A stretch of DNA of 64,000 nucleotides from Alphaproteobacteria bacterium (GTDB lineage: Bacteria; Pseudomonadota; Alphaproteobacteria; Rs-D84): positions 3,433-67,432 of the forward strand of contig JAIDWS010000022.1 in NCBI GenBank assembly GCA_029059055.1. The letters run 5' to 3'. Made by a program: the position numbers and the translations under genes. The notes beneath the pieces were generated by a model that did no database searches, was not told the DNA's origin, and saw nothing but the letters and a program-made list of their open reading frames with translations. The stretch's first letter is position 1; the number at the start of each line of letters is the position of its first letter. Below, piece after piece: positions 2,549 through 59,547 of this stretch.

Positions 2549-2923
2549 TTAACGCGAATAATAACAATCACCCGTATATGTCCCGGATCCCGACGTATCC
2601 GAAAATGACGTGCCGGACGACAGATAACAATCTGTAATAGACGTAGCACGACCACCAAAAGTCGTGCCACCATCCGGACAATCCACACAAACACCAGAAG
2701 ATGGATACTGCCCATCCAAGCATATTTCCTGTAAGGGCGGCCGGATTGTTCCGCCACCACCGCCCGAACACGTCGTACAACAGTTATTCAATCCCCACAC
2801 CAGGCAATTTTCAGGATGGCCATCACATTGCATGTCATAAGGACAGGTCAGCGTTGCCACACCATGCGCACCGCCGCACATTATCATTGCCACCCCCCAG
2901 ACCAACATCAGTGATTTTTTCAT
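2549..2923 (-). CDS. small secreted Cys-rich protein (family member 1)
   Basis: 124 aa with a signal peptide (MKKSLMLVWGVAMIMCGGAHG) and 16 Cys. The C-terminal module CVDCPDGGTTFGGRATSITDCY...TGDCYYSR is shared with the other family members. Confidence 0.7.
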   Translation of the reverse strand: MKKSLMLVWGVAMIMCGGAHGVATLTCPYDMQCDGHPENCLVWGLNNCCTTCSGGGGGTIRPPLQEICLDGQYPSSGVCVDCPDGGTTFGGRATSITDCYLSSGTSFSDTSGSGTYTGDCYYSR

Positions 2924-3168
2924 TCAAACTTCCCTTTTGTTTATTTCATTAATGAAAAACCACCAAAAAATTTTTCAGGTGGTTGGAGGTTCGAAACTAT
3001 AAACTAGAATAGTGCTGCTTATTCGATATATTCAGCCGCCCTCCAACCCGCAATAACGGATGGAGTTTTTATCGTCACACCGGACGCTAGTTTAATGGGT
3101 TTCGACACCCACCCCGGGAACACCCCTGGGGCAAATTAAATTATATATCAATTGGGATTTATGAACAA
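2924..3168 (-). promoter_or_regulatory. promoter plus structured leader RNA, copy A
   Basis: Minus-strand promoter TTGTTC (3168-3163), 17-nt spacer, TATAAT (3145-3140). The leader has a 5' hairpin with loop GUGUU and a long-range helix ggttggagg (3047-3039) : cctccaacc (2989-2981). That helix encloses a hairpin with loop AAUAUAUCGAAUAAG. Terminator: aaccacc-loop-ggtggtt-UUUUU (about 2984-2955). Confidence 0.55.
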
Positions 3169-14910: not shown

Positions 14911-15865
14911 ATACCAAATGTAATAAATATTGCTTGAACAAGAATAACCGTGCAAAGCGCCGCATATGCCGGGGCAACATTTTAATGTGTCGCGCATGGG
15001 CCAATAACCGACGGCGCAGTTGCGGTGCCATGATTGATTTATCCACATTGATTTCGTTCAATTCGAAATCCACAATGCAGCGCATCAAATTAAATATCAC
15101 AGAATTCAGAAAATACCGTGGCAAAGCCCTGTTTTCATCAATGCGTTCAATTACTGTCAACAATTGGTCGACCCGCCCCAGCGGCCCTGCCCCGCGGGTC
15201 ACAGAATCACGCCAAACGCGGTGATACAGAACGACCTGGTTAACCTGGACCATCAATGGGCGCATGGCCAACACATCCAGAAACCACAATAAATCTTCAT
15301 TGATTTCGATATTTTCCGGGAACCGAATATGTTTAACCATGTCCGCACGATACAAACGACGCCATGTCCATGCCACGTTATAACAATATTTGGGCAAATC
15401 TGTAAACAGATTTTCGTACAGCAACACATTCACCGCATGCGGATTGAACACCGCCGGCAATTTGGGCAACCGAAATTCGGCATGGACAGTGGTGGTGCCA
15501 CCTTCAACAATATCGGCGTTTCGCATTGACGCCCCGTGCAACATAATTTCAAATGCCGCCGGTAACAACATGTCATCGGCGTCCAAAAACGAAATCCACT
15601 GGCCGGCCGCCATATCCATTCCCACGTTACGCGCCGCCGATACACCGCGCCGCGATTGGTATACAGATTTGAACCGTTTGTCACGCCGACAATATTTTTC
15701 AATAATCGCCCGGGAATCGTCATCACTGCCGTCATCAATAATGATACATTCCCAATCGGTCACGGTCTGGTTTAACACAGATTTCAGACAGTCATCCAGA
15801 TACCGTCCATTATTGTAATTCGGAATAATCAGGGAAATATTCGGCATCAGCTTAGATATGGGCAT
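14891..15865 (-). CDS. glycosyltransferase family 2
   Basis: ISLIIPNYNNGRYLDDCLKSVLNQTVTDWECIIIDDGSDDDS...ISFLDADD. An alternative ATG at 15847 (MPNISLIIPNYNN) would give a TGATG overlap with the upstream Cys-rich gene. Confidence 0.85.
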   Translation of the reverse strand: MPISKLMPNISLIIPNYNNGRYLDDCLKSVLNQTVTDWECIIIDDGSDDDSRAIIEKYCRRDKRFKSVYQSRRGVSAARNVGMDMAAGQWISFLDADDMLLPAAFEIMLHGASMRNADIVEGGTTTVHAEFRLPKLPAVFNPHAVNVLLYENLFTDLPKYCYNVAWTWRRLYRADMVKHIRFPENIEINEDLLWFLDVLAMRPLMVQVNQVVLYHRVWRDSVTRGAGPLGRVDQLLTVIERIDENRALPRYFLNSVIFNLMRCIVDFELNEINVDKSIMAPQLRRRLLAHARHIKMLPRHMRRFARLFLFKQYLLHLVYGHGTD

Positions 15866-16479
15866 GTATGTGAATCAAAGCATCCGCTGTTATCGCACGA
15901 TGCCGCGACATAGACCCGGCAATCCGTAATACTGCCACCCACGGCATATGTGTTACGGTACCCGCGCAACCCACTGTAAAATGGACATTCATATTGGCAT
16001 ATCGACCCATAATTATAACTGTTATAACATTGCAGATTGTCCCCGCCATGCGAACTGACATAGCGGCAAGAACACGCATTTCTGCTGGCACTGCTGTCCA
16101 ACATATATACGCGGCGACATTTTACCAAACTGCCGTATTGCGAATCACAGACTTCGTTACCGCGGTCAAATGAAAAGCAATAAATTTTGCTGCCGTTATT
16201 ACAACTGATGGGGTTATTCAGCGCCCAATAACACGGATAATCGCCATAATATTCATCCCCAGACAGACATTCACATGTACACGACATCCCGGATGTATAC
16301 CCCGGACTGGCCACACAATTTGCATATAATCCGGCGCCGCATTGTTGACTGCATGCGGACAACTGGGTGTAATTACAGGTATCTGCGATTGCATCATTGA
16401 CCTTGATAAAATAATTACACACCGAAATCAAAGCAACCAAAATACTGTGCACCAGTGCCGATTTTCTTGTAAATGACAT
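15847..16479 (-). CDS. secreted Cys-rich protein (family member 2)
   Basis: 210 aa with an N-terminal hydrophobic signal/anchor (SALVHSILVALISVCNYF) and more than 25 Cys. C-terminal family module: YECPFYSGLRGYRNTYAVGGSITDCRV...SHTCPYLS. Confidence 0.65.
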   Translation of the reverse strand: MSFTRKSALVHSILVALISVCNYFIKVNDAIADTCNYTQLSACSQQCGAGLYANCVASPGYTSGMSCTCECLSGDEYYGDYPCYWALNNPISCNNGSKIYCFSFDRGNEVCDSQYGSLVKCRRVYMLDSSASRNACSCRYVSSHGGDNLQCYNSYNYGSICQYECPFYSGLRGYRNTYAVGGSITDCRVYVAASCDNSGCFDSHTCPYLS

Positions 16480-25757: not shown

Positions 25758-25764
25758 GATGCCA

Positions 25765-26658
25765 GTTGCAGATTGCTTTCCTAATCAATTTTGATACAAT
25801 TCGGAGGAACCGAATGCGGCAACAATTGGAGTTGTAGATTGCTTTCCTAATCAGTTTTGATACAATGCAATATTGAATATAAGGGCACACTGTGGCGTTG
25901 TAGATTGCTTTCCTAATCAGTTTTGATACAATAAGTGAATGAAAAATTTACCTGTGGATTTAGTTGTAGATTGCTTTCCTAATCAGTTTTGATACAATAT
26001 AAAATTCAAACAGCACTTGCTGAATGGGGTTGTAGATTGCTTTCCTAATCAGTTTTGATACAATGCAACCTAGCAGAATACTGGGGTGTAACCAGTTGTA
26101 GATTGCTTTCCTAATCAGTTTTGATACAATTCGTCTTTGCATTTCTCTTGTGCTTCCAAGGTTGTAGATTGCTTTCCTAATCAGTTTTGATACAATGAAA
26201 AAACGTTTCTCTCTTCTCTTTTTTGTGTTGTAGATTGCTTTCCTAATCAGTTTTGATACAATTTATCCGCTGTTTCATCCCCCATCTGCGCAGTTGTAGA
26301 TTGCTTTCCTAATCAGTTTTGATACAATTCAATGAACTTTTGCTGAAAAGCGTACGCAGTTGTAGATTGCTTTCCTAATCAGTTTTGATACAATTTTTGA
26401 AAATAAATTTTATCAGGTATGGGTGTTGTAGATTGCTTTCCTAATCAGTTTTGATACAATTATGAGCATCATCAAATTGATTCGCGAGCAGTTGTAGATT
26501 GCTTTCCTAATCAGTTTTGATACAATTCAAAAACTGAATTTTTTTCAGTAATTGGAGTTGTAGATTGCTTTCCTAATCAGTTTTGATACAATTTGGTACA
26601 AACATATCAAACAACCAAAAATGTTGTAGATTGCTTTCCTAATCAGTTTTGATACAAT
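25765..26658 (+). CRISPR. CRISPR array, 14 repeats x 36 nt and 13 spacers x 30 nt (type II-C)
   Basis: The repeat GTTGTAGATTGCTTTCCTAATCAGTTTTGATACAAT starts at 25765 and every 66 nt up to 26623; I checked every unit. The first unit (25765) is degenerate (GTTGCAG...TCAATTTT). Orientation is set by complementarity to the tracrRNA anti-repeat. Confidence 0.97.
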
Positions 26659-26715: not shown

Positions 26716-27045
26716 CTAGAACATAACAAGTTGTTTTGCCCCTATCTTTTCTTGTTTTTTCGATTCGCCAACCAGTATTTCCATATCGGCAAATTGTTTT
26801 TCTGTAACTGTCATCAGTCTAACACTGCCGCGGGGCGGAATCAAGCATTTTAGGCGGCCAGCATGCTTTTCAACCTGTGCCATTCCCTTGCAAATCCGCG
26901 AATAAACAGACAGTTGCATCATATAGTATCCGTCCTTTAACAAAGCATTCCGAAATTTAGATGCCTGTTTTCTATCTTGTTTTGTTAGTGTTGGTAAATC
27001 AAAAAATACTATCATTCTCATAAATCGTTCCCCATATTGCGCCAT
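26716..27045 (-). CDS. cas2: CRISPR-associated endoribonuclease Cas2
   Basis: 109 aa: MRMIVFFDLPTLTKQDRKQASKFRNALLKDGYYMMQLSVYSRI. Its ATG overlaps the cas1 stop (TAATG). Confidence 0.9.
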   Translation of the reverse strand: MAQYGERFMRMIVFFDLPTLTKQDRKQASKFRNALLKDGYYMMQLSVYSRICKGMAQVEKHAGRLKCLIPPRGSVRLMTVTEKQFADMEILVGESKKQEKIGAKQLVMF

Positions 27046-27950
27046 TACTCATAATCCCCCATAACCAACATAGAAGATTCAAAAACCGGTAAATTTAATA
27101 AACGACAATCCTTTTGCCTGAATGCCTTGGCCAATGATGCGGACATCATTTCTGCACATTTAAGCAGGGATATTGCTTCGCCATCCATATTTGCATTACA
27201 CAACAATACTGATATTAGTTTATTTTTTAATTCTGGTGTTAAATCCGAATAATCAGACAAATCCAACTTTGCCACACTATAATCCACAAATGGCCGCAAT
27301 GGTTCCATCATGTCATCAACCAAATTAAACTGATTTAATTGATTATCATGATGAATGCCAAAACATGGCAACAATCCAGATGCAACAATATTGCGCGCAA
27401 CACAACCACGCACAATGGCATATCCATAATTCAGCGCTTTGTTTATCACATTTGCATCATCACGGCGCGAAAAATCACCGAACAACAACCGCCAATAGAG
27501 TTGAGCCGCATAAGCTTCGCGATTATCGCTATCACCGCTTTGTACACGTTTTGCAATTTCGCCCAGCGCATTTTGCCTTCCCAGCGCATATAACACAGCA
27601 GATTGATTTAAAATTTTCTGTTGCACAACTGATTGCCATACGCGCTTTTTTAATGGTTCAGTGGCCGCGATTTGAATATGGGCCATTTCTGAATAGCGCG
27701 AGTTATCATGAAACGGAAAAAAAGTTCCCGACGGCAAATGCGACGCATCACAGGTCAACAAGACGACATCATTTGCCGCGAATTCTGACAAAACGTGCCC
27801 TGTTAATTGTACAAAGCCCGTTTCCAAAACAACGACCGACAAGTCCTCTATCGGAATCGTTGTTTTGGTGTCATCTGATTCATAAAATAATTGTTTTTGC
27901 TTGACTGATAATTTACACGGTTTCGTTAGTTGAAGGATTCGCCACCCCAT
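27045..27950 (-). CDS. cas1: CRISPR-associated endonuclease Cas1 (type II)
   Basis: 301 aa: NKALNYGYAIVRGCVARNIVASGLLPCFGIHHDNQLNQFNLVDDMMEPLRPFVD. Confidence 0.95.
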   Translation of the reverse strand: MGWRILQLTKPCKLSVKQKQLFYESDDTKTTIPIEDLSVVVLETGFVQLTGHVLSEFAANDVVLLTCDASHLPSGTFFPFHDNSRYSEMAHIQIAATEPLKKRVWQSVVQQKILNQSAVLYALGRQNALGEIAKRVQSGDSDNREAYAAQLYWRLLFGDFSRRDDANVINKALNYGYAIVRGCVARNIVASGLLPCFGIHHDNQLNQFNLVDDMMEPLRPFVDYSVAKLDLSDYSDLTPELKNKLISVLLCNANMDGEAISLLKCAEMMSASLAKAFRQKDCRLLNLPVFESSMLVMGDYE

Positions 27951-30900
27951 TTTTATTCCTTTTAGGTTGCTTCCTTCCTTTTCTTTTTTCTGATTGCGGC
28001 TTTATGGCACAGACCGGCGTCCGATGTTCACATTTTACTTCATTCACATCGCCCAACACGCCAATATGAAATTTTTGTAAGTTTTTGAATGTATTTATGT
28101 CTATTTTTTTCTGACTATCGCATTTTTCCAATTCCACCAATGTTTTTATTTTCTTTTTTTCTTCCACTCCGCCACGTTTTTGTTTTTTCTGTGCTTCTAT
28201 TTCAAAAATAATACCATTTTCACTGATTGCAATTAATTTTCCGTTTTTAATCTCAGAAACCTTATACAAAGTATTTTCAACTTTAATAATATCATCAGGC
28301 TCAAACGTATCTGTTCGAACAGAAAATCTTGCAGAATTATCTAAACTTCTAATTACTAATTGAGATTGGTTAGAGGCCGCCGTACACTTTACGACATACC
28401 CCTCATATTCTATCTCCGATTTTGTCGTAATCTTGATATAATCATCCTTGTGCAATGTCATAACGAATTCATAAGTATCGTCAATGGCAACGGGCTTTTC
28501 CGCCTTGGCTGGTTGGGGATAGAATATATCTTGGCGATTTTTATCAACTGTATCCGCAACAAATATTGGAACAACCACATACTTGCCGTCTTTTTTAAAG
28601 ATATCCATGCGGAACATATTGTCTTTATCCGCACGTCCACGTGGCAAAACCATACTACCTTTACCAGATTTTGGCGAATTTATAGTATCTTTATGCACCG
28701 AACCCGTTGCCTTGCCACGTACCGTACGCGAAACAAATACATCATCAACGGACTGCAAGACATCCGCCCGAAAACCATCCCATGGCTCTCTAACATTCTG
28801 CTTCAAGTTGTCCCACCAGGGCCGCCCTTTCTCATTACGTTTATTTTCAAACAAACCGGATACTGTTGATAAATATTGCACCATTCCTGGCGTTGCACAG
28901 GCGATAACAATGGCGTCCTGGGCATGATGCCGGTCTGATTCTGTACGCGATTTTGTCAGCCCCCACTGACCGCGTAAATAATGTGTCAATGCCCCGGCAC
29001 GCACATCAACCCGCAAATCTGGGAACGCGGTATTTAAGACTTGTTTGACATATCGTGCCGCATATGCATTGTCATGCTCATTGCGTTCACGAAAATCCTC
29101 TTCTGACGCATCAAAGTCTTTATTCAACAGATTATGCACTTTGCGGGTTCCCAACCCCACTTTGAGTGCAGATACACGCCCAGCAAAATCATCCCAACGT
29201 GCGGTATTGCCAAAATATTCATACGGTGTTTTATTGCCTTTGGCCTGATTTTCTGTATATTTGACCAAAACCTTGTTCATATATGAATTATCCAACGATC
29301 GTGAATACGGTAAAATATGGTCAATTTCGTAACTATCCAGATGGGCCAAATCAATCGCTTCGCCAGAATACATGCACTTTCCATCTTGATCACGATACAG
29401 TTTATATTTTACTACATCTTTGGCTGTGGCCTTGCGTCCCGTCAACGCTTCATACTCTGTCCGGGCACTATCATTTTTATCGCGATTTTCATTTTGTTGG
29501 CGTTCGATTTTTTTACGATCGTCAAAGTTATTCTTTAATTCGCGCCCTACTTCTAAATTCACACGGTCCGGGGTGCCGTATTTACGAACCAGCGCATTAT
29601 ACACCTTGCGAAACTGGGCAACTGTACGATTAACAACCGGGACACGCGTCCATTCTGCAATCTCTGCGACACATCCATTGTCTGCCTTTACTTCGCCAGA
29701 TATTTTGCTTTTAAAATCATATCCGGCCGCCGCACACGCCTTGTCATACGTCAGTCCACGCATCATTTCCGGCACAATTTTATACAAGGCCTGTAAAGAC
29801 AGATTTATAAACTTTGACGTAGATAGCGTCTTTAATTCGGCAATATGCTTTTCAGGCACCTTTTTTCGACGCAATTCTTTTTCGATTGCCGCATCATCTT
29901 TCTGGGTTGCAATGACCTTCATAATCCGGTCCAGCATTTGAACATCCGACATATCGGCACTATCCAAGATTTTCTTTAATTTATGCCATCCGGCCATGGA
30001 ATAAAAGGTTTGCGTTTCTTCCTTTACACCGCGAAAAGCGACATCGTGCCCTTTCCATATTTTATTACGCAGTGTCTTGTACTTAACAGTTTGGGTCTTG
30101 CGCAATAAATCCAGAATTGCAGCACGTTCTTCATCATTCACAGAACGCACGGCGCCATCGATAACCATTTTCATGTTATTTATACGGGTCAACGCCACAA
30201 ACAATTCTGCCGTCGGGGATTCTTTTGGCGCACGCAGACAATTGGGTTCCAATGTACATCCGCCGACCATTTTGCCAACCGACTGTATTGGACGTACACG
30301 AAATGCAATTTTCTTATATTGTTCGCGCAATTCTGGGGTAAGCAGTCCGTATTTCTGCTGGGCATCAAAAATCAAATCAAGTTCCCGTTCTATTTCTTCC
30401 CGCGGAATTGAGTTATCGTATACGCCATCACCATTGCGATATTTTTTCGCGCCATCGCAATTGTTTTTGTAAATCATCTGGGCCATCGTCTTATATTCAC
30501 CCATCCGTTCACGATTCCGCGCAATGGAAACCAGTACCTTTCCGGTTTCTTTATCATTTTCTTCTGCCGATTTTCGCATAGATTTATATCCGCGATGCTT
30601 TGCCATATGAATTAACACACGCGACAGTTCGCGTGATGACAATTTACGATAAAACACATCTTCTGCGCGCAACGCCCAAACATCAACGTCATCGGCCCCA
30701 ACAACAATATTTTGATTACCAAGTCCACTATTTTCCAATAATGTTCGAATTTCTTTCATACGTAACGCTTTTCTGCGCAGCGCACGACGAATTGACCGCT
30801 TCTCGCGACGCGGCGCCGCCAATGAAGAACCATCCTTAGGATTTTCCGCGACACTAAAAATACGTACACCTGACTGTTGAATTTTTCCCACAGTGGCACG

Positions 30901-30990
30901 TCCCATCTCTGGATTATTATTTTCTTTCTCTATATCAACAACCGCCCAACCGATACTGGCAATTCCCAAGTCAAAACCGAATACACGCAT
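27913..30990 (-). CDS. cas9: Cas9, compact type II-C (1025 aa)
   Basis: RuvC-I MRVFGFDLGIASIGWAVV, Arg-rich bridge helix RREKRSIRRALRRKALRMKEIR, HNH YEIDHILPYSRSLDNSYMNKVLVKYTENQAKGNKTPYEY, and RuvC-III HHAQDAIVIA. There is no csn2 or cas4 in the locus. Confidence 0.97.
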   Translation of the reverse strand: MRVFGFDLGIASIGWAVVDIEKENNNPEMGRATVGKIQQSGVRIFSVAENPKDGSSLAAPRREKRSIRRALRRKALRMKEIRTLLENSGLGNQNIVVGADDVDVWALRAEDVFYRKLSSRELSRVLIHMAKHRGYKSMRKSAEENDKETGKVLVSIARNRERMGEYKTMAQMIYKNNCDGAKKYRNGDGVYDNSIPREEIERELDLIFDAQQKYGLLTPELREQYKKIAFRVRPIQSVGKMVGGCTLEPNCLRAPKESPTAELFVALTRINNMKMVIDGAVRSVNDEERAAILDLLRKTQTVKYKTLRNKIWKGHDVAFRGVKEETQTFYSMAGWHKLKKILDSADMSDVQMLDRIMKVIATQKDDAAIEKELRRKKVPEKHIAELKTLSTSKFINLSLQALYKIVPEMMRGLTYDKACAAAGYDFKSKISGEVKADNGCVAEIAEWTRVPVVNRTVAQFRKVYNALVRKYGTPDRVNLEVGRELKNNFDDRKKIERQQNENRDKNDSARTEYEALTGRKATAKDVVKYKLYRDQDGKCMYSGEAIDLAHLDSYEIDHILPYSRSLDNSYMNKVLVKYTENQAKGNKTPYEYFGNTARWDDFAGRVSALKVGLGTRKVHNLLNKDFDASEEDFRERNEHDNAYAARYVKQVLNTAFPDLRVDVRAGALTHYLRGQWGLTKSRTESDRHHAQDAIVIACATPGMVQYLSTVSGLFENKRNEKGRPWWDNLKQNVREPWDGFRADVLQSVDDVFVSRTVRGKATGSVHKDTINSPKSGKGSMVLPRGRADKDNMFRMDIFKKDGKYVVVPIFVADTVDKNRQDIFYPQPAKAEKPVAIDDTYEFVMTLHKDDYIKITTKSEIEYEGYVVKCTAASNQSQLVIRSLDNSARFSVRTDTFEPDDIIKVENTLYKVSEIKNGKLIAISENGIIFEIEAQKKQKRGGVEEKKKIKTLVELEKCDSQKKIDINTFKNLQKFHIGVLGDVNEVKCEHRTPVCAIKPQSEKRKGRKQPKRNKNGVANPSTNETV

Positions 30991-39305: not shown

Positions 39306-39439
39306 GTTAAAATCCTGTTGTGTTTATTTCCCCATTATTTTATACTTTTTATTGAACCCACAGGGATGTGGGTTCGGGACTTAGAAAATCCCAATCATCG
39401 CGGTGGCATGCCATCGTAATCCGACCAAAATGCTGCGAT

Positions 39440-39622
39440 TTTGCGGCATATGTTACGTCCCCGACGGGTATATATCCGGCCGGGAAGCTGTTGGTTATAC
39501 AACAAGATGCCCCGGGCATCCAAAGGCCAACAGGGTCTTTCGATGATTGATTTTTCTAACTTCCCGACCACCAAGAACACTGGTGGTTTTTGTTTCATAC
39601 AAAACAAAAGGGATGAAAAATC
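39440..39622 (+). promoter_or_regulatory. structured leader RNA, diverged copy E
   Basis: Outer helix cgggaag (39481-39487) : cttcccg (39560-39566). Terminator accacca-agaacac-tggtggt-TTTT (39567-39591). The SD context aacaaaaggga is shared with copy A. The inner hairpin differs (tgttg-GUUAUA-caaca). Confidence 0.4.
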
Positions 39623-40210
39623 ATGAAAAAAACCGTCTTTATCATCGCCATGTTCATAATGGCAATCGGCTGCGCCGGGGCCAGCCATGCAGCGAATGAA
39701 ATCATCGGCACCACCTGTACAGAATCAGCATGGCAAAGTTGTCTGACCAATTATGGCGTGACATATGATTCCAGCTGTTCAAATTCCGCATGCAGCCTGT
39801 GTAACAATCGGTCATCGTCGGCGGGGCTGACGAATTCATTCGGCATTGTTACCAGCACAACATACAGATACGAAACCAATTGCCCATCATCATATGGCGG
39901 CACCGCCACGTGCAGCTGTAAACAAACCAGTTCGTCATACAAATGTGCATCGGGTTATTACGGCACAGCGACATCCAGCACCAGTGGTTGCACCGCATGC
40001 CCATCAAACGCGACATGTGCCGGCGGTAATAATTCCACATTTTCCTGTAACAAGGGATATTACAAAGACGGGTCATCGTGTTCCGCATGCCCCGGCATTG
40101 GTACATCCGCCGCCGGCGCGACATCGATATCATCATGTTACATCCCGGCCGGCACGACGTATTCCGACAGCACGGGTGGTGGGGAATACACCGCCAATTG
40201 TCCATATTAA
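39623..40210 (+). CDS. secreted Cys-rich protein (family member 3)
   Basis: Signal peptide MKKTVFIIAMFIMAIGCAGASHA. Repeats: CASGYYGTATSSTSGCTACPSNATCAGGNNSTFSCNKGYYKDGSSCSACPGIGTSAAGATSISSCY...TANCPY. Confidence 0.72.
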   Translation: MKKTVFIIAMFIMAIGCAGASHAANEIIGTTCTESAWQSCLTNYGVTYDSSCSNSACSLCNNRSSSAGLTNSFGIVTSTTYRYETNCPSSYGGTATCSCKQTSSSYKCASGYYGTATSSTSGCTACPSNATCAGGNNSTFSCNKGYYKDGSSCSACPGIGTSAAGATSISSCYIPAGTTYSDSTGGGEYTANCPY

Positions 40211-42200: not shown

Positions 42201-42476
42201 TTGCAATCATACAATTTTCACGATATAATACGCATGTCGCCGGGTGTTCCGGCGATGGGGTGTGATGACCCGTGTGATAGCGTCGGAATACTGTCATATG
42301 GCGCGCAAAATGGCGCCTGTTTTAATATTTCGATGAAAAGAAAACTCCTGAAACCCATTGGGTCAGGAGGGTTGCGAATATATTGAATAAGCACACAATT
42401 CTATCAATTGTCATCAACCTCCTGACCACCACGAAAATGGTGGTTTTTTGTTTAACAAAGCATCAGGAGATTGAAC
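42201..42476 (+). promoter_or_regulatory. promoter plus structured leader RNA, copy B
   Basis: TTGCAA (42201-06), 17 nt, TATAAT (42224-29). 5' hairpin cgccgg-GUGUU-ccggcg (42238-54). Hairpin ctcctga...tcaggag (42345-69). Outer helix 42361-70 : 42418-27. Inner hairpin loop GAAUAUAUUGAAUAA. Terminator 42425-49. SD caTCAGGAGa (42461-70). Confidence 0.6.
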
Positions 42477-42551
42477 ATGAAACAAAAATTAACGGCGATA
42501 TTGACATTGCCGATATTATTGGCATTGCCAACCGACCGCGGATACGCCGCC
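42415..42551. repeat. inverted repeat, left arm (leader 3' part plus signal-peptide codons)
   Basis: 137 bp, the reverse complement of 44058-44194, with 4 mismatches that I can see. Confidence 0.85.
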
Positions 42552-43274
42552 GGTGACGTTGGCACAACAATAAAATGCAGCAACGATGCCAGATGTACAA
42601 ACTATGTCGCGTCCACATACAGTTATGGGGGGACAAAAGAACCCACAACCACACTATGCGATACCAATACATATGGATATTGTTGGCTCTGGGGCGACCT
42701 GTGCGTATCAAACGGTTTCGGTAATGATACACCGGGTTACTGCACCCAACGCTGTGCAGAACGGGGTTACGATATCTTGGTCTATGACATGAATAACAAT
42801 TACGAATGGGGATGCGCCTGTGTTCGGGATACATCATTCCAAGAATGGCAAAAATACAGCACCAGACGTATGCAAAAATATACCCCCACATACCGCAACG
42901 ACATGACCGCTGGGAAATGCACCGTCACCGCCACCCCGACCGGCGAATATCGATGCGCGGCCGGATATTATGGCACCGCAACATCAGAATCCGCCTGTCT
43001 CGCATGTCCCACCAACGCCACATGCAGCGGGGGAACCACATTTATGTGTAATGTCGGCTATTACAGAAATGCCGCCAAAACCGGATGCACCAAATGTCCA
43101 GACAGCAAAACCGCCGGCTTGGGATGGGACGCCAATGGAAATGGGGTTGCGGCCGTGGGCGGCGGTGATGATATCAGCTGGTGCGCCATTGCATCTGGGA
43201 CCGTGTTACACGATAACACCGGAACGTTCATTGTGGACCCCGACAATGAACTGACGGATGGGTGCGAATATTAA
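42477..43274 (+). CDS. secreted Cys-rich protein (family member 4)
   Basis: ATG at 42477, 6 nt after the SD; the track's TTG at 42471 is less likely. Signal peptide MKQKLTAILTLPILLALPTDRGYAA. Repeats: YRCAAGYYGTATSESACLACPTNATCSGGTTFMCNVGYYRNAAKTGCTKCP...LTDGCEY. Confidence 0.75.
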   Translation: MKQKLTAILTLPILLALPTDRGYAAGDVGTTIKCSNDARCTNYVASTYSYGGTKEPTTTLCDTNTYGYCWLWGDLCVSNGFGNDTPGYCTQRCAERGYDILVYDMNNNYEWGCACVRDTSFQEWQKYSTRRMQKYTPTYRNDMTAGKCTVTATPTGEYRCAAGYYGTATSESACLACPTNATCSGGTTFMCNVGYYRNAAKTGCTKCPDSKTAGLGWDANGNGVAAVGGGDDISWCAIASGTVLHDNTGTFIVDPDNELTDGCEY

Positions 43275-43277
43275 CAC

Positions 43278-43301
43278 AAATCCACCCAAATGGGTGGATT
43301 T
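43278..43301. terminator. bidirectional terminator between the convergent paralogs
   Basis: aaatccacccaaatgggtggattt. Confidence 0.65.
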
Positions 43302-43313
43302 ATGATTGGTCAT

Positions 43314-44132
43314 TTAATAAGTTTGATATTCGCATCCGTCATTCGCGTCATCGGTAATGACAAATGTGCCGGTGGCGTCATGCAGCACCGTTCCCGCGGG
43401 AATACTGCACCATGACAATTCGTCCACACCACCCACGGCGGCCACGCCATTTCCATTGGCATCCCATCCCAGACCGCCCGTTTTGCTGTCTGGACATTTG
43501 GTGCATCCGGTTTTGGTGCTGTTGATATAAAATCCGTCCTTGCATGAAAATGTGGAATTATTTCCACCACGACACGTCGCGTTTAACGGGCATACGGTGC
43601 ATCCGGTGCGGTCCGATGTGGCGGTGCCATAATATCCGGCCGCACATCGATAATTATCGGTGGTGGTGGCGGTGACGGTGCATCCTGCGCCGGATGAACC
43701 GCTGGAATATGTTGGTTTATATTGCCGCATGTACCCACTGTTGCCGGCAACGGCGCGCCATTCTTGGAATGACGCGGATTGAAAACAGGCACACCCCCAT
43801 TCGTAATTGTTATTCATATCATAGACCATAACATCATAACCCGCATTTGCGCAGTTTTGGCTGCACACGTTATATGCGTCGTGGCCGGAACCATTTCCCA
43901 GACACACCCCATCCCACAACCAACAATATCCACTGCCACCAGCGGTACATGGCGCCGTTGTGGTACTCTTGTCACCAAATTTGTGATAAGATGCGCCGAC
44001 GTATTTTGTACAACTGTCCGCATACGCACATTTTTCCACGATATTCACTTCCAAACTGGCGGCGTATCCGCGGCCGGTCGGCAATGCCAATAATATTGGC
44101 AATGTCAGTATCGCCGTTAATTTTTGTTTCAT
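43314..44132 (-). CDS. secreted Cys-rich protein (family member 5)
   Basis: ATG at 44132. Its signal peptide differs from member 4 at a single residue (PTG vs PTD). Repeats: YRCAAGYYGTATSDRTGCTVCPLNATCRGGNNSTFSCKDGFYINSTKTGCTKCP...ANDGCEYQTY. Confidence 0.75.
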   Translation of the reverse strand: MKQKLTAILTLPILLALPTGRGYAASLEVNIVEKCAYADSCTKYVGASYHKFGDKSTTTAPCTAGGSGYCWLWDGVCLGNGSGHDAYNVCSQNCANAGYDVMVYDMNNNYEWGCACFQSASFQEWRAVAGNSGYMRQYKPTYSSGSSGAGCTVTATTTDNYRCAAGYYGTATSDRTGCTVCPLNATCRGGNNSTFSCKDGFYINSTKTGCTKCPDSKTGGLGWDANGNGVAAVGGVDELSWCSIPAGTVLHDATGTFVITDDANDGCEYQTY

Positions 44133-44194
44133 GTTCAATCTCCTGATGCTTTGTTAAACAAAAAACCACCATTTTCGTGGTGGTCAGGAGGTTG
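44058..44194. repeat. inverted repeat, right arm
   Basis: Reverse complement of 42415-42551. Confidence 0.85.
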
Positions 44195-44408
44195 AGAACA
44201 ATTAATGGAATTGCACTGCTTATTGAATATTCAGCAGTCCTCCTGACCCAAAAACGGGTATGTTCAGGAGTCTTCGCCGGCACATATCAAAAACGGCGCC
44301 AATCGCGCGCCATCATGGTATTCCGACGCCATTAAAGAGGTTCTCACGCCCCATCACCGGAACCCCCGGTGACATAATAATTATATGCCGACGGTGCAGT
44401 TAATGCAA
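44133..44408 (-). promoter_or_regulatory. promoter plus structured leader RNA, copy C
   Basis: Minus strand: TTGCAT (44408-03), 17 nt, TATAAT (44385-80). 5' hairpin tcaccgg-GGGUU-ccggtga. Inner hairpin actgc-UGAAUAUUCAAUAA-gcagt. Its 3' third is near-identical to copy B. Confidence 0.6.
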
Positions 44409-44449: not shown

Positions 44450-47400
44450 TCAGAATCTGTACGAACCGGATATCTTAATCTGATGCAACTGCATTTCCGT
44501 ATTATATTGATACCGGTAATCCAGACCAACCTGGACCCCGCTGGCCGACAGGATTTCCACCCCGCCCCCTGCGTTGGCCCACAACGGGTCCAAATCAATG
44601 TCATATGTGGTATACCCGCTGGCCGGTGCGAATTTGTATTTCGCGTGGTTCGGCGCACCCAGCAAATCGTATTCCACACCCACCGACAGATACGGGCGAA
44701 TCTGGAACCACGGCCCCGGATAGATACGCTTTTGCGCAATCAACGAATACCCCGGTGTCAACATCATGTATGCATCGGATTCCAATTTCATGTAATCGCT
44801 GCCGGCGGCCTTTTCGGTGACAGAAAATCCCGAATTGACGCCCACACGTGCATACAGATTGCCCACCAGATACTGGTTCAACCAATCATGCAGCAATCCC
44901 CATTCCGACGTCAATGCGAACGCGGTACCACTGCCATCGATGGACGCGACATAATTCTGTTCGCGCGACACATCCAACAGGTGCAAATCCAGATATGCGT
45001 TTCCATACAGACGCATCTTGGTCCCCAATGTCTTCATCAAATATCCGCCCAGGCCGATGTCTGTATCCGCCACGTCAACCTTGACATGTCCGGCGATATG
45101 CTGGCCGGGTTTATAGCCCAATTCCATGCTGTCGGAATTGTCGGACGACATGTGGGACACGCGGCCGGTCACACCCAAAATCAGTGTCGGATTTTCCTGC
45201 CAATCAAAACCACCCGATACGCTGAACCGGTCGCCACTGACACGTTTGCCATCGGATACGCGCTGATTAAACATGCCGAAATCCGCATCCAACCATGCCT
45301 TTTTCAAATTACGGTGACGATTCCAGATGAATTCGTCGAACATACGATCTTCGAAATTGCGGAAATTGGTATGTTCGTTCATCACGATATGACCCGCAAT
45401 TTGTTCGATTTCACGCGGCTGGAACAAACGGCTGAACCGGGCCAATCCACGACCATCGCGCGATGTGTTGTAATATTCCATGCGCTGATACAGTTCCTGG
45501 GCCATTTCCGCCATGTTTGTGTTTTTAAAGATTAACGGAATCGCTTCAATCGGTGTCCGGTTAAAGAATCCGGTCTGGGCCAATTTACCCGCAATCAATT
45601 TGTCCAATGCCCCCGCAGAAACATGTTCACCGGTGGTGTGGTCGCCTTCGCGGTCAACGATGGGCTGAATCTTAAAGACTTCGACCGGGCCACCGAAACG
45701 CGGGTCAAACACGATGTAAATGCTGTCCGGCACGCCGTCGCCATCGGTATCACGGACCGACAGAAACGCCGGCAAATCCAACCCGTCAACGCTGCCGTTA
45801 TTACCGGGCTTAATCGCGTCCAGATAATCAAAGCACATTGAACCGTCCGCATTACAGAACTTTACGAACAAATTGCGCATCTTTAACGCCAATTCTTCCA
45901 GGCCGCCGTCCGCATGCACCAACCAAATGGCATCGCCCTGGTCAACCATGTCAAAGATATCAATGCCAATTTGCGGATTGGTCAATGCCCCACCGTTAAT
46001 CGACGTACCCAAATCTGTAACATTGGAAATGAATTTCCCATTGACAGAAATCAAGGGTTCCGCCCCAACCGGATTGGTAATCTGGCCCAATGTGTTGTCA
46101 TTGTTCAGACTGACCGATGCCCAATAATTGCGGGTGGTCGCCGCCGGCGGCATGATGGCCGCGTGCAACAAACTGTCGGTGTCAAACGTATATGCACCAC
46201 CAACGGTCATTTCTTTTAATCCCACAAATCCAACGCCACCGGATACATCACCATCCACGTTAACCGTCAACCAATTGTTGTTGATTGTGCTGTCTTTGCC
46301 CTGGGCATAGACACGCAGATGTGATGCCAAAATACTGCCGTGGACATCCAAATCACTGGTGTTCAGGGTCATGCTGCCGGATTTTTGCTGAATCCCGTTT
46401 GTGATAACGTTTGATGCCGTAATGGTGTACGCATCCCCAATAACATTCGCATCACCCGCAGACGCCGATGTCATATTCTGTAACAAACGTCCCGCCAATG
46501 TAAACGCCCCGGTCGAATTCATACCCTGGCCCAGCAAAGTTGCCGAACCACCGGTCAATGTAAAGCTGGTGACGTTGGCCAAATCCGCCCCCGAATCCAG
46601 CGTCATTGTGCCCGCCATCCCGTTCACAACATCCAATGTCATGCCGTTTTGTGCGGTCAATGTCAATGTACCCGCATTCGTGACGTTGGCGGCGGTAATC
46701 GTTTTGGCCGAAATATCGGCGTCTGCGACGCTGACAACAATGATGTCGCCGGCAATCGTCGCCGCATCTGCGATGCGGTAATCCGCCGATAAGCCATTCG
46801 CCCGGAATGCCCCGTCAACGACCAAATTCTGGGCCGTGACGACCGAATTGTTACGCGTAATATTCAATACGCCACCGGTACCGCCAATCCCACTTTGGAC
46901 CAAATCGCCCGCCACGGTAATATTATTGGTCGCGGTAATCGTATTAACGTTCAAATTGGCATAACCACCGGTTACAGACAAATTATTCAGATTCCACGAC
47001 GTCCCCGTCACATCCAACGCGCCCGCCGTGGTCGACACCGCCGCAGACTGCATCGTGCCACCAGACATGGTAAATGCCCCGCTGTTGGTGATGCTGCCGG
47101 TATTGATGGGCCCGGAATTCTTGGCCGTGATGGCAACACTGCTGGTGTTTGTAATATCTTGGGTTGTGATGCTGGCCCCGTCAATGGTCAATGTCCCGGA
47201 ATTATCAATATCATTGGCCGATGTCACCGCACCGTTGGCATTGATATCCAATGTTCCCTGGGCATTTTTAACCAGCCCCGCCAACGTCACCGCATCACGC
47301 GAATTCAACGTCAATTTGTGTCCCGACGATATCGACATACCGCCGGCAATATTCATAGAACCACCGTTTCCGGTTGTGGCCAATGTGACATTGGTCGGCC

Positions 47401-49675
47401 CCGTGATAACCATACCCGACGTCGGGTTTGTTCCGTCAAACCAGATACCGCCCGCGATATCAATGGCGTTTGTATTTGCATCCGACGCATCAATCGTGGC
47501 ATTTACCGACGCGGATGACCCGTGCAAGATAAATTTGCCATTGCCGCCCAGACTGCCGACATCAATGTCCGCCACCGCCAGGTCGATTACCCCGCCGTCG
47601 CGCGCCGTCAACGCACCGGTTACATTCAAATTGGTGGCCAGATTACCGCCAAAAATCAATGCACCACGATTCGCCGCGGTGACATTGCCACCCACGTCCA
47701 GCGTTTGCGCATCAAAGCTGATGGTGCGCGCCATATCGTTTTCAATTGCGGAAATATTGCCGCCAATGTTAATTGCGTCGGTGGCCGTCATGACAAAGGT
47801 CTGGGGGCCGCCCGCCGCAATATTCACATTACCCGCGTCCAGAACCGGTGTCGCCGCCGCCGTAACATCACCCGCGATGTTTGCCGTGCCGGTAATGGCG
47901 ATTTCATGCGTGGCGTCGCCGATGTTCAAATCACCGCCGGTTACATTCAAATTATTGGTCACAGATACCGACCCGGTCAACGCAGTCAAATCCACCACGC
48001 CGCCCGATACATTCAAACCGCCCAGCGTTACCGCCCCGCCGGTCTGGTCAGACCCACGGATGGTCATGGTACCGTCGGCATTTGTAACCACGCCGTCAAT
48101 TTTAATCTGGCGCGATTCAATTTTCATTGTGCCACTGTTGGTGACGGTGCCGGTAATTGAAATATCCCCCGGCGTATTGGTATACGCATCAATCGCCATG
48201 TTCCCGACGTTCGACACCGTATTCAAGGCAATTTTTTGCCCGTTGATGTTCATGGTGGCCGTCGTGCTTTCATTCGCGACCGCACCGCCGACCGTTATGG
48301 TCCCATCGGCAATTAAATTCGTGGTTCCATCCCCACGGGCGGTCACACCCTGGGCCACATTAATGGTACCGGCACCGGCGTTGGCGGCGGTAATATTTAA
48401 ACTGGTACCGGAATTGGTAATGGAATTGGCTGTAATCGCCTGGGCGGCCAACATCATATCCGCATTGGCGTTTGTATCCCCGTTGATAATATCCGTCGTC
48501 AGGTTTAATTCCCCATTGCGCACGCGCACAATAAACGAATTCAAATTATTTGTAAACAATGCCAACCAGTTGTCATCCGACAAATTGGTCCCGAATCGCA
48601 ATGTACCGGTATCCAATTCAAACGTATTGGTATTCGGCATTGTGGTCAAATCGAACCCATTTTCCAGATATGTTTCACCGGTAACGTTAATGGCCAAAAT
48701 CCCCTTGTTCACCAAGGATGCGTCATTATGCGCCGAATCGGTCCCGGCCACGTTCAGGGACGTACCACTGATTTTCATTGTGCCGCCATCCGAATCGTTT
48801 TTCATGGTCCCGGACACCGTAATGGCACCGGCACTGGTGATTGTCATGGACGCGTTACCATTGGCATCAATCCCAGAATTTTCCACACTACCCGTCACAT
48901 CAATTCCACCGGTGGTTGTGGTGATATTCATACGTCCCGCCTGGTTTTGAATACTGCCCTGGGCGATGATATTGCCGGCGGTGATATCGGTATTTCCGGT
49001 ATGCGCGACAACAAAGTTCCCAGACGCGTCTGTATCCGCCAGATAGCTGCCATTTGTATATTGGCCCATAATCATTTGACCGGCGGCATTGATGGTAACG
49101 TCGCCCTGGTCATTGGCCAAAGTTCCCATTTTAATCGTATTGGCGTTAATGGCCAACGTACCGGCATTGGTCACACTGCCGGTGCCGGCGGTCAAGACGT
49201 CCCCGGTCCATGTTCCGACCGTTAACGCATCAATATTATTTAATGTCAATGACCCCTGGTTATCAATACTGCCCAGGGCGGCATTAATCGCGGCCACAGA
49301 CGTATTGTTGGGCAATTCCAGGGTCAACGCGCGACCATTTAAAACGCGCAATACGCCGCCAACCGACAGCGCGCCTTCGCTTTGCAGTGTAAATGACAGA
49401 TTGGTATTCGTCGCAATCAGCAATTGCCCGGTATCGGCACCAATATAATCTTGGCCGGCAATCATATCACCGGTAACAGAAATACCGCCGGTCCCCACAA
49501 CCACACCCGCGGGGGTTTGGTTATAACTGTTCCCCTGGATAATCACACTGTCGGTGTAATTAATGCCCGCCTGGTCCGGAATTAATCCGTCCGCCCCGGG
49601 TTCCAAATAAACAGGCGCCGCAACTGCACCAACCGGCAACAGGCAGCAAACAAAAGAAATTAGCTTTTTTATCAT
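44450..49675 (-). CDS. very large autotransporter (type Va) adhesin-like protein
   Basis: 1741 aa from ATG 49675. Signal peptide MIKKLISFVCCLLPVGAVAAP. A Cys-free passenger of about 1400 aa carries degenerate beta-helix-type repeats (G-T-L/I-x-I/V-N...). The C-terminal beta-barrel domain ends in ...KISGSYRF. Confidence 0.85.
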   Translation of the reverse strand: MIKKLISFVCCLLPVGAVAAPVYLEPGADGLIPDQAGINYTDSVIIQGNSYNQTPAGVVVGTGGISVTGDMIAGQDYIGADTGQLLIATNTNLSFTLQSEGALSVGGVLRVLNGRALTLELPNNTSVAAINAALGSIDNQGSLTLNNIDALTVGTWTGDVLTAGTGSVTNAGTLAINANTIKMGTLANDQGDVTINAAGQMIMGQYTNGSYLADTDASGNFVVAHTGNTDITAGNIIAQGSIQNQAGRMNITTTTGGIDVTGSVENSGIDANGNASMTITSAGAITVSGTMKNDSDGGTMKISGTSLNVAGTDSAHNDASLVNKGILAINVTGETYLENGFDLTTMPNTNTFELDTGTLRFGTNLSDDNWLALFTNNLNSFIVRVRNGELNLTTDIINGDTNANADMMLAAQAITANSITNSGTSLNITAANAGAGTINVAQGVTARGDGTTNLIADGTITVGGAVANESTTATMNINGQKIALNTVSNVGNMAIDAYTNTPGDISITGTVTNSGTMKIESRQIKIDGVVTNADGTMTIRGSDQTGGAVTLGGLNVSGGVVDLTALTGSVSVTNNLNVTGGDLNIGDATHEIAITGTANIAGDVTAAATPVLDAGNVNIAAGGPQTFVMTATDAINIGGNISAIENDMARTISFDAQTLDVGGNVTAANRGALIFGGNLATNLNVTGALTARDGGVIDLAVADIDVGSLGGNGKFILHGSSASVNATIDASDANTNAIDIAGGIWFDGTNPTSGMVITGPTNVTLATTGNGGSMNIAGGMSISSGHKLTLNSRDAVTLAGLVKNAQGTLDINANGAVTSANDIDNSGTLTIDGASITTQDITNTSSVAITAKNSGPINTGSITNSGAFTMSGGTMQSAAVSTTAGALDVTGTSWNLNNLSVTGGYANLNVNTITATNNITVAGDLVQSGIGGTGGVLNITRNNSVVTAQNLVVDGAFRANGLSADYRIADAATIAGDIIVVSVADADISAKTITAANVTNAGTLTLTAQNGMTLDVVNGMAGTMTLDSGADLANVTSFTLTGGSATLLGQGMNSTGAFTLAGRLLQNMTSASAGDANVIGDAYTITASNVITNGIQQKSGSMTLNTSDLDVHGSILASHLRVYAQGKDSTINNNWLTVNVDGDVSGGVGFVGLKEMTVGGAYTFDTDSLLHAAIMPPAATTRNYWASVSLNNDNTLGQITNPVGAEPLISVNGKFISNVTDLGTSINGGALTNPQIGIDIFDMVDQGDAIWLVHADGGLEELALKMRNLFVKFCNADGSMCFDYLDAIKPGNNGSVDGLDLPAFLSVRDTDGDGVPDSIYIVFDPRFGGPVEVFKIQPIVDREGDHTTGEHVSAGALDKLIAGKLAQTGFFNRTPIEAIPLIFKNTNMAEMAQELYQRMEYYNTSRDGRGLARFSRLFQPREIEQIAGHIVMNEHTNFRNFEDRMFDEFIWNRHRNLKKAWLDADFGMFNQRVSDGKRVSGDRFSVSGGFDWQENPTLILGVTGRVSHMSSDNSDSMELGYKPGQHIAGHVKVDVADTDIGLGGYLMKTLGTKMRLYGNAYLDLHLLDVSREQNYVASIDGSGTAFALTSEWGLLHDWLNQYLVGNLYARVGVNSGFSVTEKAAGSDYMKLESDAYMMLTPGYSLIAQKRIYPGPWFQIRPYLSVGVEYDLLGAPNHAKYKFAPASGYTTYDIDLDPLWANAGGGVEILSASGVQVGLDYRYQYNTEMQLHQIKISGSYRF

Positions 49676-49773
49676 ATTTTTTTGTTTAATTCCGATTACA
49701 ATTGTGCTTACATTATGGCACATAATTTGTTTGTTAGCCAAGCAAAAAGTAATCGCAAGGTGTAAAAATATAG

Positions 49774-58422: not shown

Positions 58423-59547
58423 ATGAGAAAAATTTTATTAATTCTTTTATCCGCTTATTTTATCCCCATCATGACACCATCCGCGCATGGTGCAACATCG
58501 GCACAAACGTGTGGTGATGCAACCAAGCAATCCGAATGTCCCGCCGGTTGTAGATGGCATACAACATCCGGATGCCTGCAGTGTACTGGGAACACATACA
58601 GTGCCAAGGGCGCCACAAATTGTACATCATGTCCAGACACCCACCCATTGGCACCAGACGGCGCGACCAGTCAGTCCGAATGTTATAAAAAATGCGCGGG
58701 CGAAACCATTGACAACGGAAAATTCAACGATGATGTAATTGCCACCTATGATAATGAATGTAAGCCATCATGCGATAGCAGTGGAAACTGCAACTTTACA
58801 TGCAGTACCACCCAAAACGATGTCTGCACATCCTTTACCCCACAGAATGCCCAATGTGTATCTGCCATTACAGCATGCACCCCCGTACATGGTAAGGAAA
58901 ACACCGGGATAATCCTAACAGTACTCGCTAACCTTCCGACAACTCAGGCATTTTGCTACGCTACATCACAAGCCTCTTGTAAAGAAGATTTCACTTTTAT
59001 AGAATTGACGAAGCAGCCATTCCCATGTTCCACCCACACACTGGGGGTATGTTATTCAAACACGGTAAATTGCAGTGATAAGTTGGGGGCACCCGACAGC
59101 AATGGAAGAATTGATGGTACCGCAGAAATAAACAACGGCAAGTATGATTATTCCAACTGCACATGGACTGTCACCAATGTGGAAATCACCAACGGTACAG
59201 GAAAAAAAACATGTAAATACAAGGGGCCGGTCCCAGATATTAGTACCACCACAAAACGGCCCACTAACGAAGCAGACTGGGGTACCTGTACCACTGAGGC
59301 AACCACTTGCAACACCGGCTTTTGCAAAGATAACACCCAATGCATCACCCCCAGAAAAGGGTACTATGGCGATCGGTATGATTGCCAGAAATGCCCCGCG
59401 GGAACGACAACTGCTGCCACCGGCGCAACCACACAATCCGACTGTATCATGACACGCGGTGCAAACGGGACAAAATTTTGCGATGGCGCCGGAAACTGTT
59501 TTACACTGGGGGGGACCGGAACAATTCCATACAATCCCACAAACTGA
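58423..59547 (+). CDS. secreted Cys-rich protein (family member 6, largest)
   Basis: Signal peptide MRKILLILLSAYFIPIMTPSAHG. Repeats: CLQCTGNTYSAKGATNCTSCPDTHPLAPDGATSQSECYKKC ... YYGDRYDCQKCPAGTTTAATGATTQSDCI. Confidence 0.72.
   Translation: MRKILLILLSAYFIPIMTPSAHGATSAQTCGDATKQSECPAGCRWHTTSGCLQCTGNTYSAKGATNCTSCPDTHPLAPDGATSQSECYKKCAGETIDNGKFNDDVIATYDNECKPSCDSSGNCNFTCSTTQNDVCTSFTPQNAQCVSAITACTPVHGKENTGIILTVLANLPTTQAFCYATSQASCKEDFTFIELTKQPFPCSTHTLGVCYSNTVNCSDKLGAPDSNGRIDGTAEINNGKYDYSNCTWTVTNVEITNGTGKKTCKYKGPVPDISTTTKRPTNEADWGTCTTEATTCNTGFCKDNTQCITPRKGYYGDRYDCQKCPAGTTTAATGATTQSDCIMTRGANGTKFCDGAGNCFTLGGTGTIPYNPTN

Follow-up and report, generated by a model that had tools for sequence, protein, structure and literature searches.

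Four paralogous cysteine-rich proteins of an uncultured gut Alphaproteobacterium, their bacterial family, and a leader RNA that may define a new regulatory class

We analysed a 64,000-nt window of contig JAIDWS010000022.1 (assembly GCA_029059055.1, an Alphaproteobacteria bacterium of the Rs-D84 lineage) around a gene that we call M3, whose exact protein is annotated as a hypothetical protein (K2L95_03205). The original prediction, made from the letters of the window, had grouped M3 with five other open reading frames (ORFs), M1, M2, M4, M5, and M6, into a six-member paralogous family of secreted, extremely cysteine-rich proteins with eukaryote-like repeats. On the sequence evidence, four of these (M1, M3, M4, and M5) are robust paralogues, not six. 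The M3-type proteins form a large, lineage-restricted, and previously undescribed bacterial family within a known repeat class, and each of the four genes stands behind a copy of a structured leader RNA that is a candidate for a new riboswitch or attenuator class. We read the family, with middling confidence, as an exported, disulfide-rich surface or secreted repertoire in which a variable head is carried on a conserved stalk and the whole set is co-regulated by attenuation.

The prediction had located all six ORFs correctly in both position and strand (Table 1), and it was also right about their composition, with cysteine making up 7.0-10.5% of each. The signal peptides that it had assigned agree with a rule-of-thumb check of the N-termini: all six have a pair of basic residues, a hydrophobic run of 10-18 residues, and a small-residue cleavage-like site, and the K/R pair and hydrophobic run are also conserved across the homologues of M3 (alignment A1, which is built from M3 and 27 homologues and also served as our profile). 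Six-member paralogy did not hold up. In an all-against-all BLASTP comparison, M4 and M5 are 60% identical (E 9e-111), and M3 matches M5 (E 2e-24), M4 (E 3e-17), and M1 (E 4e-11), while M6 reaches M3 only at E 0.002 and the best match of M2 to any of the other five has an E value of 0.24. The profile tests back the same four. The A1 hidden Markov model (HMM), run over all six frames of the window, found only M3 (E 2e-67), M5 (5e-28), M4 (6e-23), and M1 (2e-17). Against A1, hhalign gave probabilities of 99.5% for M5 and 99.0% for M1, of 82.5% for M6 (E 1e-5, over one unit only), and of 0.14%, no match, for M2. When the tail and module HMMs were applied to shuffled sequences, none of 1000 shuffles reached the score of M6, and 786-873 of 1000 scored at least as high as M2; M2 and its distant homologue P0110 are indistinguishable from shuffled sequence.

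The repeating module that had suggested the grouping is real and far from chance, because all 7 occurrences of C-x2-G[YFQ][YF]-x3-10-C-x2-CP in the six-frame translation of the window fall within M1, M3, M4, and M5. In the same translation NATC is confined to M3, M4, and M5, and M2 lacks the module, as had been said of it. The tail described as common to all six fared worse: in its strict form, G[AG][TS][ST]-x3-C, it is found in M3 and M6 only and is not present in M4 or M5, while M1 has RATSITDC and M2 has GGSITDC. By eye, the tail of M2 does resemble that of the family (GGSITDC...TCPY, and ...ITDCRVYIPAG in P0110), and we considered M2 as a divergent member, but the profile and shuffle tests give this no support. 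By these comparisons, M6 is a distant relative that has the basic repeat unit in common with the four, and M2 is a cysteine-rich protein that is unrelated, or at least unprovable as a member.

In the M3 protein, a signal-peptide-like N-terminus is followed by a head that is variable and cysteine-rich, spanning about residues 24-100, and the remainder, about residues 101-195, is the conserved C-terminal module. In A1, 12 cysteines are invariant and 2 more are nearly so, and the module is strongly conserved, its consensus beginning C-x-SGYYGTATS-x3-GCT-x-CP-x-NATCAGGNGSTF-x-CN-x-GYYKNG-x2-C-x2-CP-x3-9-T(S/T)-x2- and continuing GATSIT-x-CYIPSGT-x-FSD-x-TGSG-x-YT-x-NC(Y/P)Y. The module is about 95 aa long and is made of an internally duplicated C-x2-GYY...C-x2-CP unit followed by the tail. 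Core paralogues have one or two units (M1 has one), some relatives have at least three, and a 1386-aa protein has up to 14 matched stretches. The module is always C-terminal, in 94 of the 107 proteins the last cysteine lies 2-4 residues from the C-terminus, and the C-terminal ends, which are of the types ...NCPY, ...DCYYSR, ...GCEY, and ...CEYQTY, have no hydrophobic segment. Two N-x-S/T sequons (NAT and N-N/G-S-T) are near-invariant in the module of the A1 proteins, at residues 129-131 and 136-139 of M3 (window 40007-40039). A lipoprotein reading of M3, based on Cys17 in the sequence AIGC, was rejected because Cys17 is not conserved among the homologues in A1.

Mean pairwise identity is 64% in the module versus 29% in the head, and the heads also differ in type. 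M4 and M5 have a head of their own of about 130 residues, two relatives have a colipase-like head (eukaryote-type colipase N-terminal domain, Pfam E 4.9e-16; alignment A6, P0111-P0233), and one relative has a Listeria-Bacteroides repeat in this position (also A6). Because heads of these last two kinds occur in relatives, we regard the heads as swapped modules. Within the window, M4 and M5 are 100% identical over 42418-42520 and 44089-44191, a block of about 100 nt that covers the terminator, the ribosome-binding site, and the start of the signal peptide, and outside this block their identity is a mosaic of 42-92%. Either gene conversion or localised diversification would fit this pattern and is suggested by it.

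A word-indexed search found 107 homologues of M3, and scanning all 1.84 billion representatives (clusters at 50% identity) with the HMM gave 1159 at E<=1e-3, 311 at E<=1e-10, and 53 at E<=1e-30. In the GTDB species-representative genomes we confirmed 27 loci, a minimum count given that the scan started from just two peptide patterns. All 27 are in uncultured gut metagenome-assembled genomes (MAGs), from mouse, human, sheep, goat, roe deer, buffalo, and chicken, and several genomes have 2-4 family loci. By title, 25 of the loci belong to Alphaproteobacteria or Candidatus Enterousia, one to Rickettsiales, and one to Pseudomonadota. Candidatus Enterousia is placed in the order Rs-D84; the genomes of this order are smaller than about 1 Mb and miss many biosynthetic and respiratory pathways, and its members have been proposed to be partner-dependent (PMC12306168). 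The named sources are all uncultured gut Alphaproteobacteria MAGs save for one contig labelled Muribaculaceae (GCA_023665245.1, contig JAMPEH010000001.1, 473 kb; loci L031 and L034). This contig contains family members, a cluster of an M2 homologue with two glycosyltransferase genes like the one described below, and a Rickettsia-17-kDa-antigen-like gene; it looks alphaproteobacterial, and its label is probably wrong.

The idea that these are chance ORFs or eukaryotic contamination has their unusual composition in its favour and nothing further. We give it practically no weight: it is already refuted by conservation, with more than 1000 homologue clusters, and the motif unit is restricted to these ORFs across the six frames of the window. 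The genes are also embedded among the bacterial genes hisS, rho, ssb, and pth, with promoter-like and terminator-like sites and with Shine-Dalgarno-like motifs, which we read directly from the sequences upstream of M1-M5.

The claim that four copies sit behind a novel leader RNA was correct. The hairpin pattern CCACC-N3-14-GGTGGTTTTT occurs exactly 4 times in the window, where 0 are expected, with one occurrence before each of M1, M3, M4, and M5, while M2 and M6 have no leader. Each leader is bracketed by promoter-like and terminator-like sites, with the hairpin about 30 nt before the ATG. Upstream of M4, the promoter-like sequence is TTGCAA-17-TATAAT at 42201-42229 and the terminator-like hairpin is at 42424-42445. 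The M3 leader is a variant with a different 5' half, and its terminator-like hairpin, GACCACC...GGTGGTT followed by a T-run, is 31 nt before the ATG. Using nhmmer with an HMM built from the four sequences, we found 21 further leader copies in 16 loci of other MAGs (the leader is found in L004, L006, L008, L009, L011-L018, L021, L026, and L030), and for 15 of the 21 the matched family gene begins shortly after the leader, on the same strand.

The copies support a common structure. RNAalifold gave only 10 pairs on an 18-sequence MAFFT alignment that mixed the two leader types, and when the alignment was restricted to the 14 core-type copies it gave 28 pairs, including two long-range helices, with compensatory changes in 15 of the 28. 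In this alignment 94.9% of the cells are paired versus 78.5% in shuffles, and the covariation score is 0.534 versus 0.206, neither value being reached by any of 500 shuffles; slid registers score at most 0.18. The single-sequence fold of the M4 leader has a z-score of -5.2. When the whole window was searched with Rfam 15, only three tRNAs passed the gathering thresholds, and the M4 leader had no credible match at E<=1. The leaders thus share several features with known riboswitch and attenuator leaders, namely a promoter, a structured RNA of about 190-225 nt, covarying long-range helices, and a terminator hairpin that immediately precedes the ribosome-binding site, but they differ in matching no Rfam 15 family and are seen here as one predicted structure. 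A leader-peptide attenuator was also considered, since a 61-codon ORF with three cysteines overlaps the M4 leader. We do not favour it, because what is conserved is the base-pairing, maintained by compensatory changes, and because indels do not come in multiples of three.

The syntenic locus L004, from a related mouse-gut MAG, has a copy of the leader (5876-6095, minus strand) between ssb and the autotransporter-like gene, followed by a 121-aa, exported-looking, cysteine-rich ORF (5483-5848, minus strand) that the family HMM does not recognise. The leader regulon may therefore be wider than the family, and the slot between ssb and the autotransporter-like gene behaves like a cassette site.

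The original prediction had named the ephrin-receptor-like (GCC2_GCC3), VSP, and furin-like repeats on the strength of the cysteine spacing. This was right in kind, because the module is related, remotely and with much divergence, to the ephrin-receptor-like, VSP, and TNFR-type cysteine-rich repeats, and it is a clean fit to none of the curated families. At the superfamily level, the kinship is seen in M6, in a minority of the relatives, and in the classes of structure that are matched. M6 passes the Pfam model PF07699 (Ephrin_rec_like, formerly GCC2_GCC3) with 25.2 bits versus a gathering cut-off of 23.1, the sole one of the six to do so; it has three C-x2-C(P)...GAT(S/T)-x3-C units and also a weak TNFR_ELAPOR1 match. 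Among 28 close homologues of M3, 9 match PF07699 at E<=0.01. In a further set of 123 representatives, 19 do so at E<=0.001, while VSP is matched by 2 and TNFR_ELAPOR1, Furin-like_2, and Sushi by 1 each. The VSP model (PF03302, cut-off 31.4 bits) is passed with 68.8 bits by a 703-aa relative (P0215) that is bacterial, because it adjoins lepB-rnc-era, and in precomputed annotations it is also passed by a few short relatives.

The same searches leave most of the six proteins unplaced. M3, M1, and M5 have no Pfam match to any cysteine-repeat family, M4 reaches 13.0 bits on PF07699, which is below the threshold, M2 does not match it, and none of the six matches VSP. A scan of NCBIfam gave no meaningful match for any of the six. 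Pfam matches to MSC (Man1-Src1p) recur on the CP-x-NATC-x-GG stretch, mostly below the cut-off, and we took them as compositional. Published work treats Ephrin_rec_like as a domain that arose in eukaryotes and is rare in bacteria (PMC6993872), and in the literature on PF07699, PF03302, and GCC2_GCC3 in bacteria we found no description of an M3-type family.

Structure prediction gave a confident module and no significant neighbour. AlphaFold2 models have a mean predicted local distance difference test (pLDDT) score of 78.9 for full-length M3 and 92.1 for the module alone (residues 94-195), and both consist of short beta-hairpins. In Foldseek searches of the PDB with the two models, nothing was significant, the best E value being 0.24 with template modelling (TM) scores of 0.35-0.41. 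Both lists are dominated by the cysteine-rich domains of EphA2, EphA4, and EphB2 and by OX40, 4-1BB, DR6, TNFR1/2, DcR3, and HVEM, and they also hold ELAPOR1, the Chlamydomonas mastigoneme, and MSP1-EGF; for the module model, the EphA2 cysteine-rich domain, OX40, ELAPOR1, and others come at E 0.24-4 and TM 0.2-0.41. The cysteine-rich domains of the TNFR superfamily (OX40, 4-1BB, DR6, TNFR1/2) are thus the top structural neighbours of the models, but the similarity falls short of significance (E>=0.24, TM<=0.41) and has no counterpart at the level of sequence.

PDB sequence searches with the A1 and A4 profiles and with M6 gave weak CD46 sushi matches or nothing. The only match is local and falls on SCR2, a sushi domain of CD46, over P-x-NAT...F-x-C-N-x-GYY-x-G, with E values of 0.011 and 0.003. 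It raises the alternative of a degenerate sushi (CCP) domain, in place of a TNFR or ephrin-receptor-like repeat, in the centre of the module, and one relative does match Pfam Sushi at 1.7e-6. We consider this very unlikely, since A1 shows no conserved tryptophan of the sushi type and the family has extra cysteines, no CCP structure is among the Foldseek matches listed for the pLDDT-92 model, and Ephrin_rec_like matches are about 20 times commoner than Sushi matches.

Compared with the named systems, the bacterial module shares with PF07699 the spacing C-x2-C-P ... G-(A/T)-(T/S) ... C and, by prediction, a fold class of short beta-hairpins with a disulfide ladder, and the model is reached by M6 and by about 15-30% of the family members. 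It differs in having an invariant signature of its own (GYYGTATS, NATCAGGNGSTF, and the tail CYIPSGT-FSD-TGSG-YT-NCYY) and in belonging to small, single-module proteins in which the module is always C-terminal. With the Giardia VSPs the family has in common its cysteine richness, C-x2-C motifs, a variable multi-copy repertoire, and a gut-dwelling organism. The family proteins are much shorter, however, lack a transmembrane helix and the CRGKA tail, ending instead in CYY or CPY, and show no sign of one-at-a-time expression, the common leader suggesting co-regulation instead. VSP coats resist proteases and pH in the gut (PMC6341118); any likeness to such a coat would be purely functional, since the transmembrane helix and CRGKA tail that define VSPs are absent.

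The comparisons establish the family, the conservation of its cysteines and module, the variability of the head, and the covarying leader with its place before these genes, and the role that we propose builds on them. A Sec-type signal peptide, as read from the N-termini by rule of thumb, would direct export of each family protein. After export, disulfides among the 10 cysteines of the module would make up a ladder like that of TNFR, so that the module becomes a rigid rod, resistant to proteases, with the variable head mounted on it. The proteins would act on the cell surface or after release, where their variable repertoire would serve for binding or as a coat in dealings with the host or a partner cell. 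A role in host interaction is plausible given the lineage. Each gene is a separate transcription unit with a promoter-like site, a structured leader of about 190-225 nt, and a terminator-like hairpin shortly before the ribosome-binding site; since each gene has a common leader with a terminator, the whole set is probably switched together by terminator read-through.

Several observations weigh against this reading. Besides the missing and subthreshold Pfam matches of M1, M3, M4, and M5, the lack of significant Foldseek matches, and the CD46 match given above, mature M3 has 17 cysteines past the predicted cleavage site, an odd number, and the export reading comes from the rule-based N-terminal check. 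No anchor or secretion signal was found in the family proteins. The neighbours of the family genes, in the window and elsewhere, are housekeeping genes and uninformative on function, and a neighbourhood search for a conserved partner (a secretion system, Dsb, or an immunity gene) found only such genes. Respiratory chains are also reported to be missing from Rs-D84 lineages (PMC12306168), and it is then not obvious how disulfides would be made in the periplasm.

The cysteines could have another purpose. If the C-x2-C pairs coordinated Zn, Fe, or Cu, the proteins would be metal-binding or thiol-buffering periplasmic proteins, with a leader that senses metal or redox state. Each module has two C-x2-CP motifs, and the C-x2-C motifs of Giardia VSPs bind metals in vitro. 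An anaerobic habitat and the absence of respiratory chains in Rs-D84 (PMC12306168) also make DsbB-type oxidation doubtful. We nevertheless consider metal binding quite unlikely, since the 10 conserved module cysteines are spaced like the disulfide ladders of TNFR or Eph cysteine-rich domains, AlphaFold models the module with confidence (pLDDT 92) in the absence of metal, the folds closest to that model all belong to disulfide-rich receptors, and the invariant columns of A1 show no His, Asp, or Glu co-ligand patterns. Alternatively, intermolecular disulfides might stiffen the outer envelope, as in the chlamydial OmcA and OmcB proteins, which would fit the high cysteine content, the odd cysteine number of mature M3, the reduced lineage, and the presence in the window of a homologue of a Protochlamydia-type outer membrane protein (Pom). 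For a structural component, though, a highly variable head and a copy number that differs between genomes would be unusual, and the Pfam and NCBIfam scans show no similarity to OmcA or OmcB; we regard this, too, as improbable.

Secreted toxins, effectors, or antimicrobials aimed at competing microbes, a eukaryotic host, or a protist cell are likewise an unlikely explanation. The proteins are small and would be cysteine-stabilised, the repertoire is polymorphic and multi-copy, with the mosaic divergence of M4 and M5, at least one slot is cassette-like (the other cysteine-rich ORF behind the same leader in L004), and two relatives have the colipase-like head. In the neighbourhoods examined, however, we found no adjacent immunity genes, dedicated transporter, or processing signal, and no toxin family is matched in Pfam or NCBIfam. 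A surface or secreted repertoire is the reading that we prefer. In its boldest form, which we offer as speculation and think doubtful as a whole, the leader would be a new class of riboswitch or attenuator, and the genes behind it would be a regulon for hypervariable cysteine-rich exoproteins of eukaryote-like type in gut Alphaproteobacteria that depend on partners. These exoproteins would make up an exchangeable, protease-resistant surface coat in the manner of VSPs, or a set of adhesins, with which the bacterium attaches to a host or protist cell.

In the window, M1 has hisS on one side and a YgjP-like peptidase gene on the other, M3 adjoins rho and ssb, M4 and M5 are between ssb and a gene for a 1763-aa autotransporter-like protein, and M6 adjoins pth. 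M2 heads a cluster of M2, GT2 (14891-15865), and GT8 (14032-15048), in which it overlaps the start of GT2, and the order M2 homologue-GT2-GT8 is repeated in the one further genome where M2 has a homologue (L034, on the Muribaculaceae-labelled contig). The prediction of an operon of one copy with two glycosyltransferases is thus correct, yet M2 lies outside the family. In 5.8 billion proteins, M6 has one homologue cluster and M2 has two.

Table 1. Positions in the window of the six ORFs, the leader RNAs, and associated features
Feature	Position	Strand	Description
M1	2549..2923	-	124 aa, shortest paralogue: signal peptide (predicted), short head, one unit, tail
M1 leader RNA	2948..3146	-	nhmmer E 3e-38 (copy used in building the HMM); hairpin; alignments A2, A3, A5
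M2	15847..16479	-	210 aa, cysteine-rich, probably exported; not a supported family member; no leader
M3 leader RNA	39385..39599	+	nhmmer E 3e-42 (copy used in building the HMM); hairpin; alignment A3
M3 (focal gene)	39623..40210	+	195 aa; ORF and translation
M3 C-terminal module region	39908..40207	+	two C-x2-GYY...C-x2-CP units, tail GATSISSCYIPAGT...NCPY
M4 leader RNA	42222..42456	+	nhmmer (four-sequence HMM); fold z = -5.2; covariation
M4	42477..43274	+	265 aa; larger, distinct cysteine-rich head, conserved module with degenerate tail
M4-M5 spacer	43275..43313	.	39 bp between convergent stop codons; 13-bp terminator-like hairpin at 43275-43304
M5	43314..44132	-	272 aa; paralogue convergent with M4
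M5 leader RNA	44153..44387	-	nhmmer E 5e-59 (copy used in building the HMM); promoter-like and terminator-like sites
M6	58423..59547	+	374 aa; distant relative only; no leader

Other features of the window are also of interest. The 1763-aa protein next to M5 (44450-49741, minus strand) starts with a signal-like N-terminus, contains long repeats rich in Gly, Thr, and Asn, and ends in ...SGSYRF, the C-terminal end being conserved in L004; it looks like an outer-membrane beta-barrel or autotransporter, and it has no Pfam or NCBIfam match. The Pom homologue is a 498-aa protein (53035-54531, minus strand) that matches the Pfam family Pom (Protochlamydia outer membrane protein) with E 3e-12, an unusual match in an alphaproteobacterium. 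The window also contains a type II CRISPR-Cas locus (25764-26658, 27045-27950 on the minus strand, and 27913-30990 on the minus strand) with an array, Cas1, and a compact 1025-aa Cas9 that has HNH and RuvC. The 36-nt repeat of the array is GTTGTAGATTGCTTTCCTAATCAGTTTTGATACAAT, in about 14 copies, a count inferred from the 66-nt period. Beside the array, at 24900-25757 (minus strand), is a 285-aa protein with LPD3 (large polyvalent-protein-associated domain 3), which is typical of mobile elements.

Our analysis corrects the record to four true paralogues instead of six. The family offers concrete candidates for the interface between uncultured gut Alphaproteobacteria and their proposed partner cells, apparently exported proteins with variable heads on a receptor-like cysteine stalk of a fold class that is usually tied to eukaryotic surface proteins. 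The leader is valuable independently of the proteins, as a well-supported structured RNA that is unlisted and has more than 20 examples, and the signal to which it responds could reveal the cue that switches the repertoire on.

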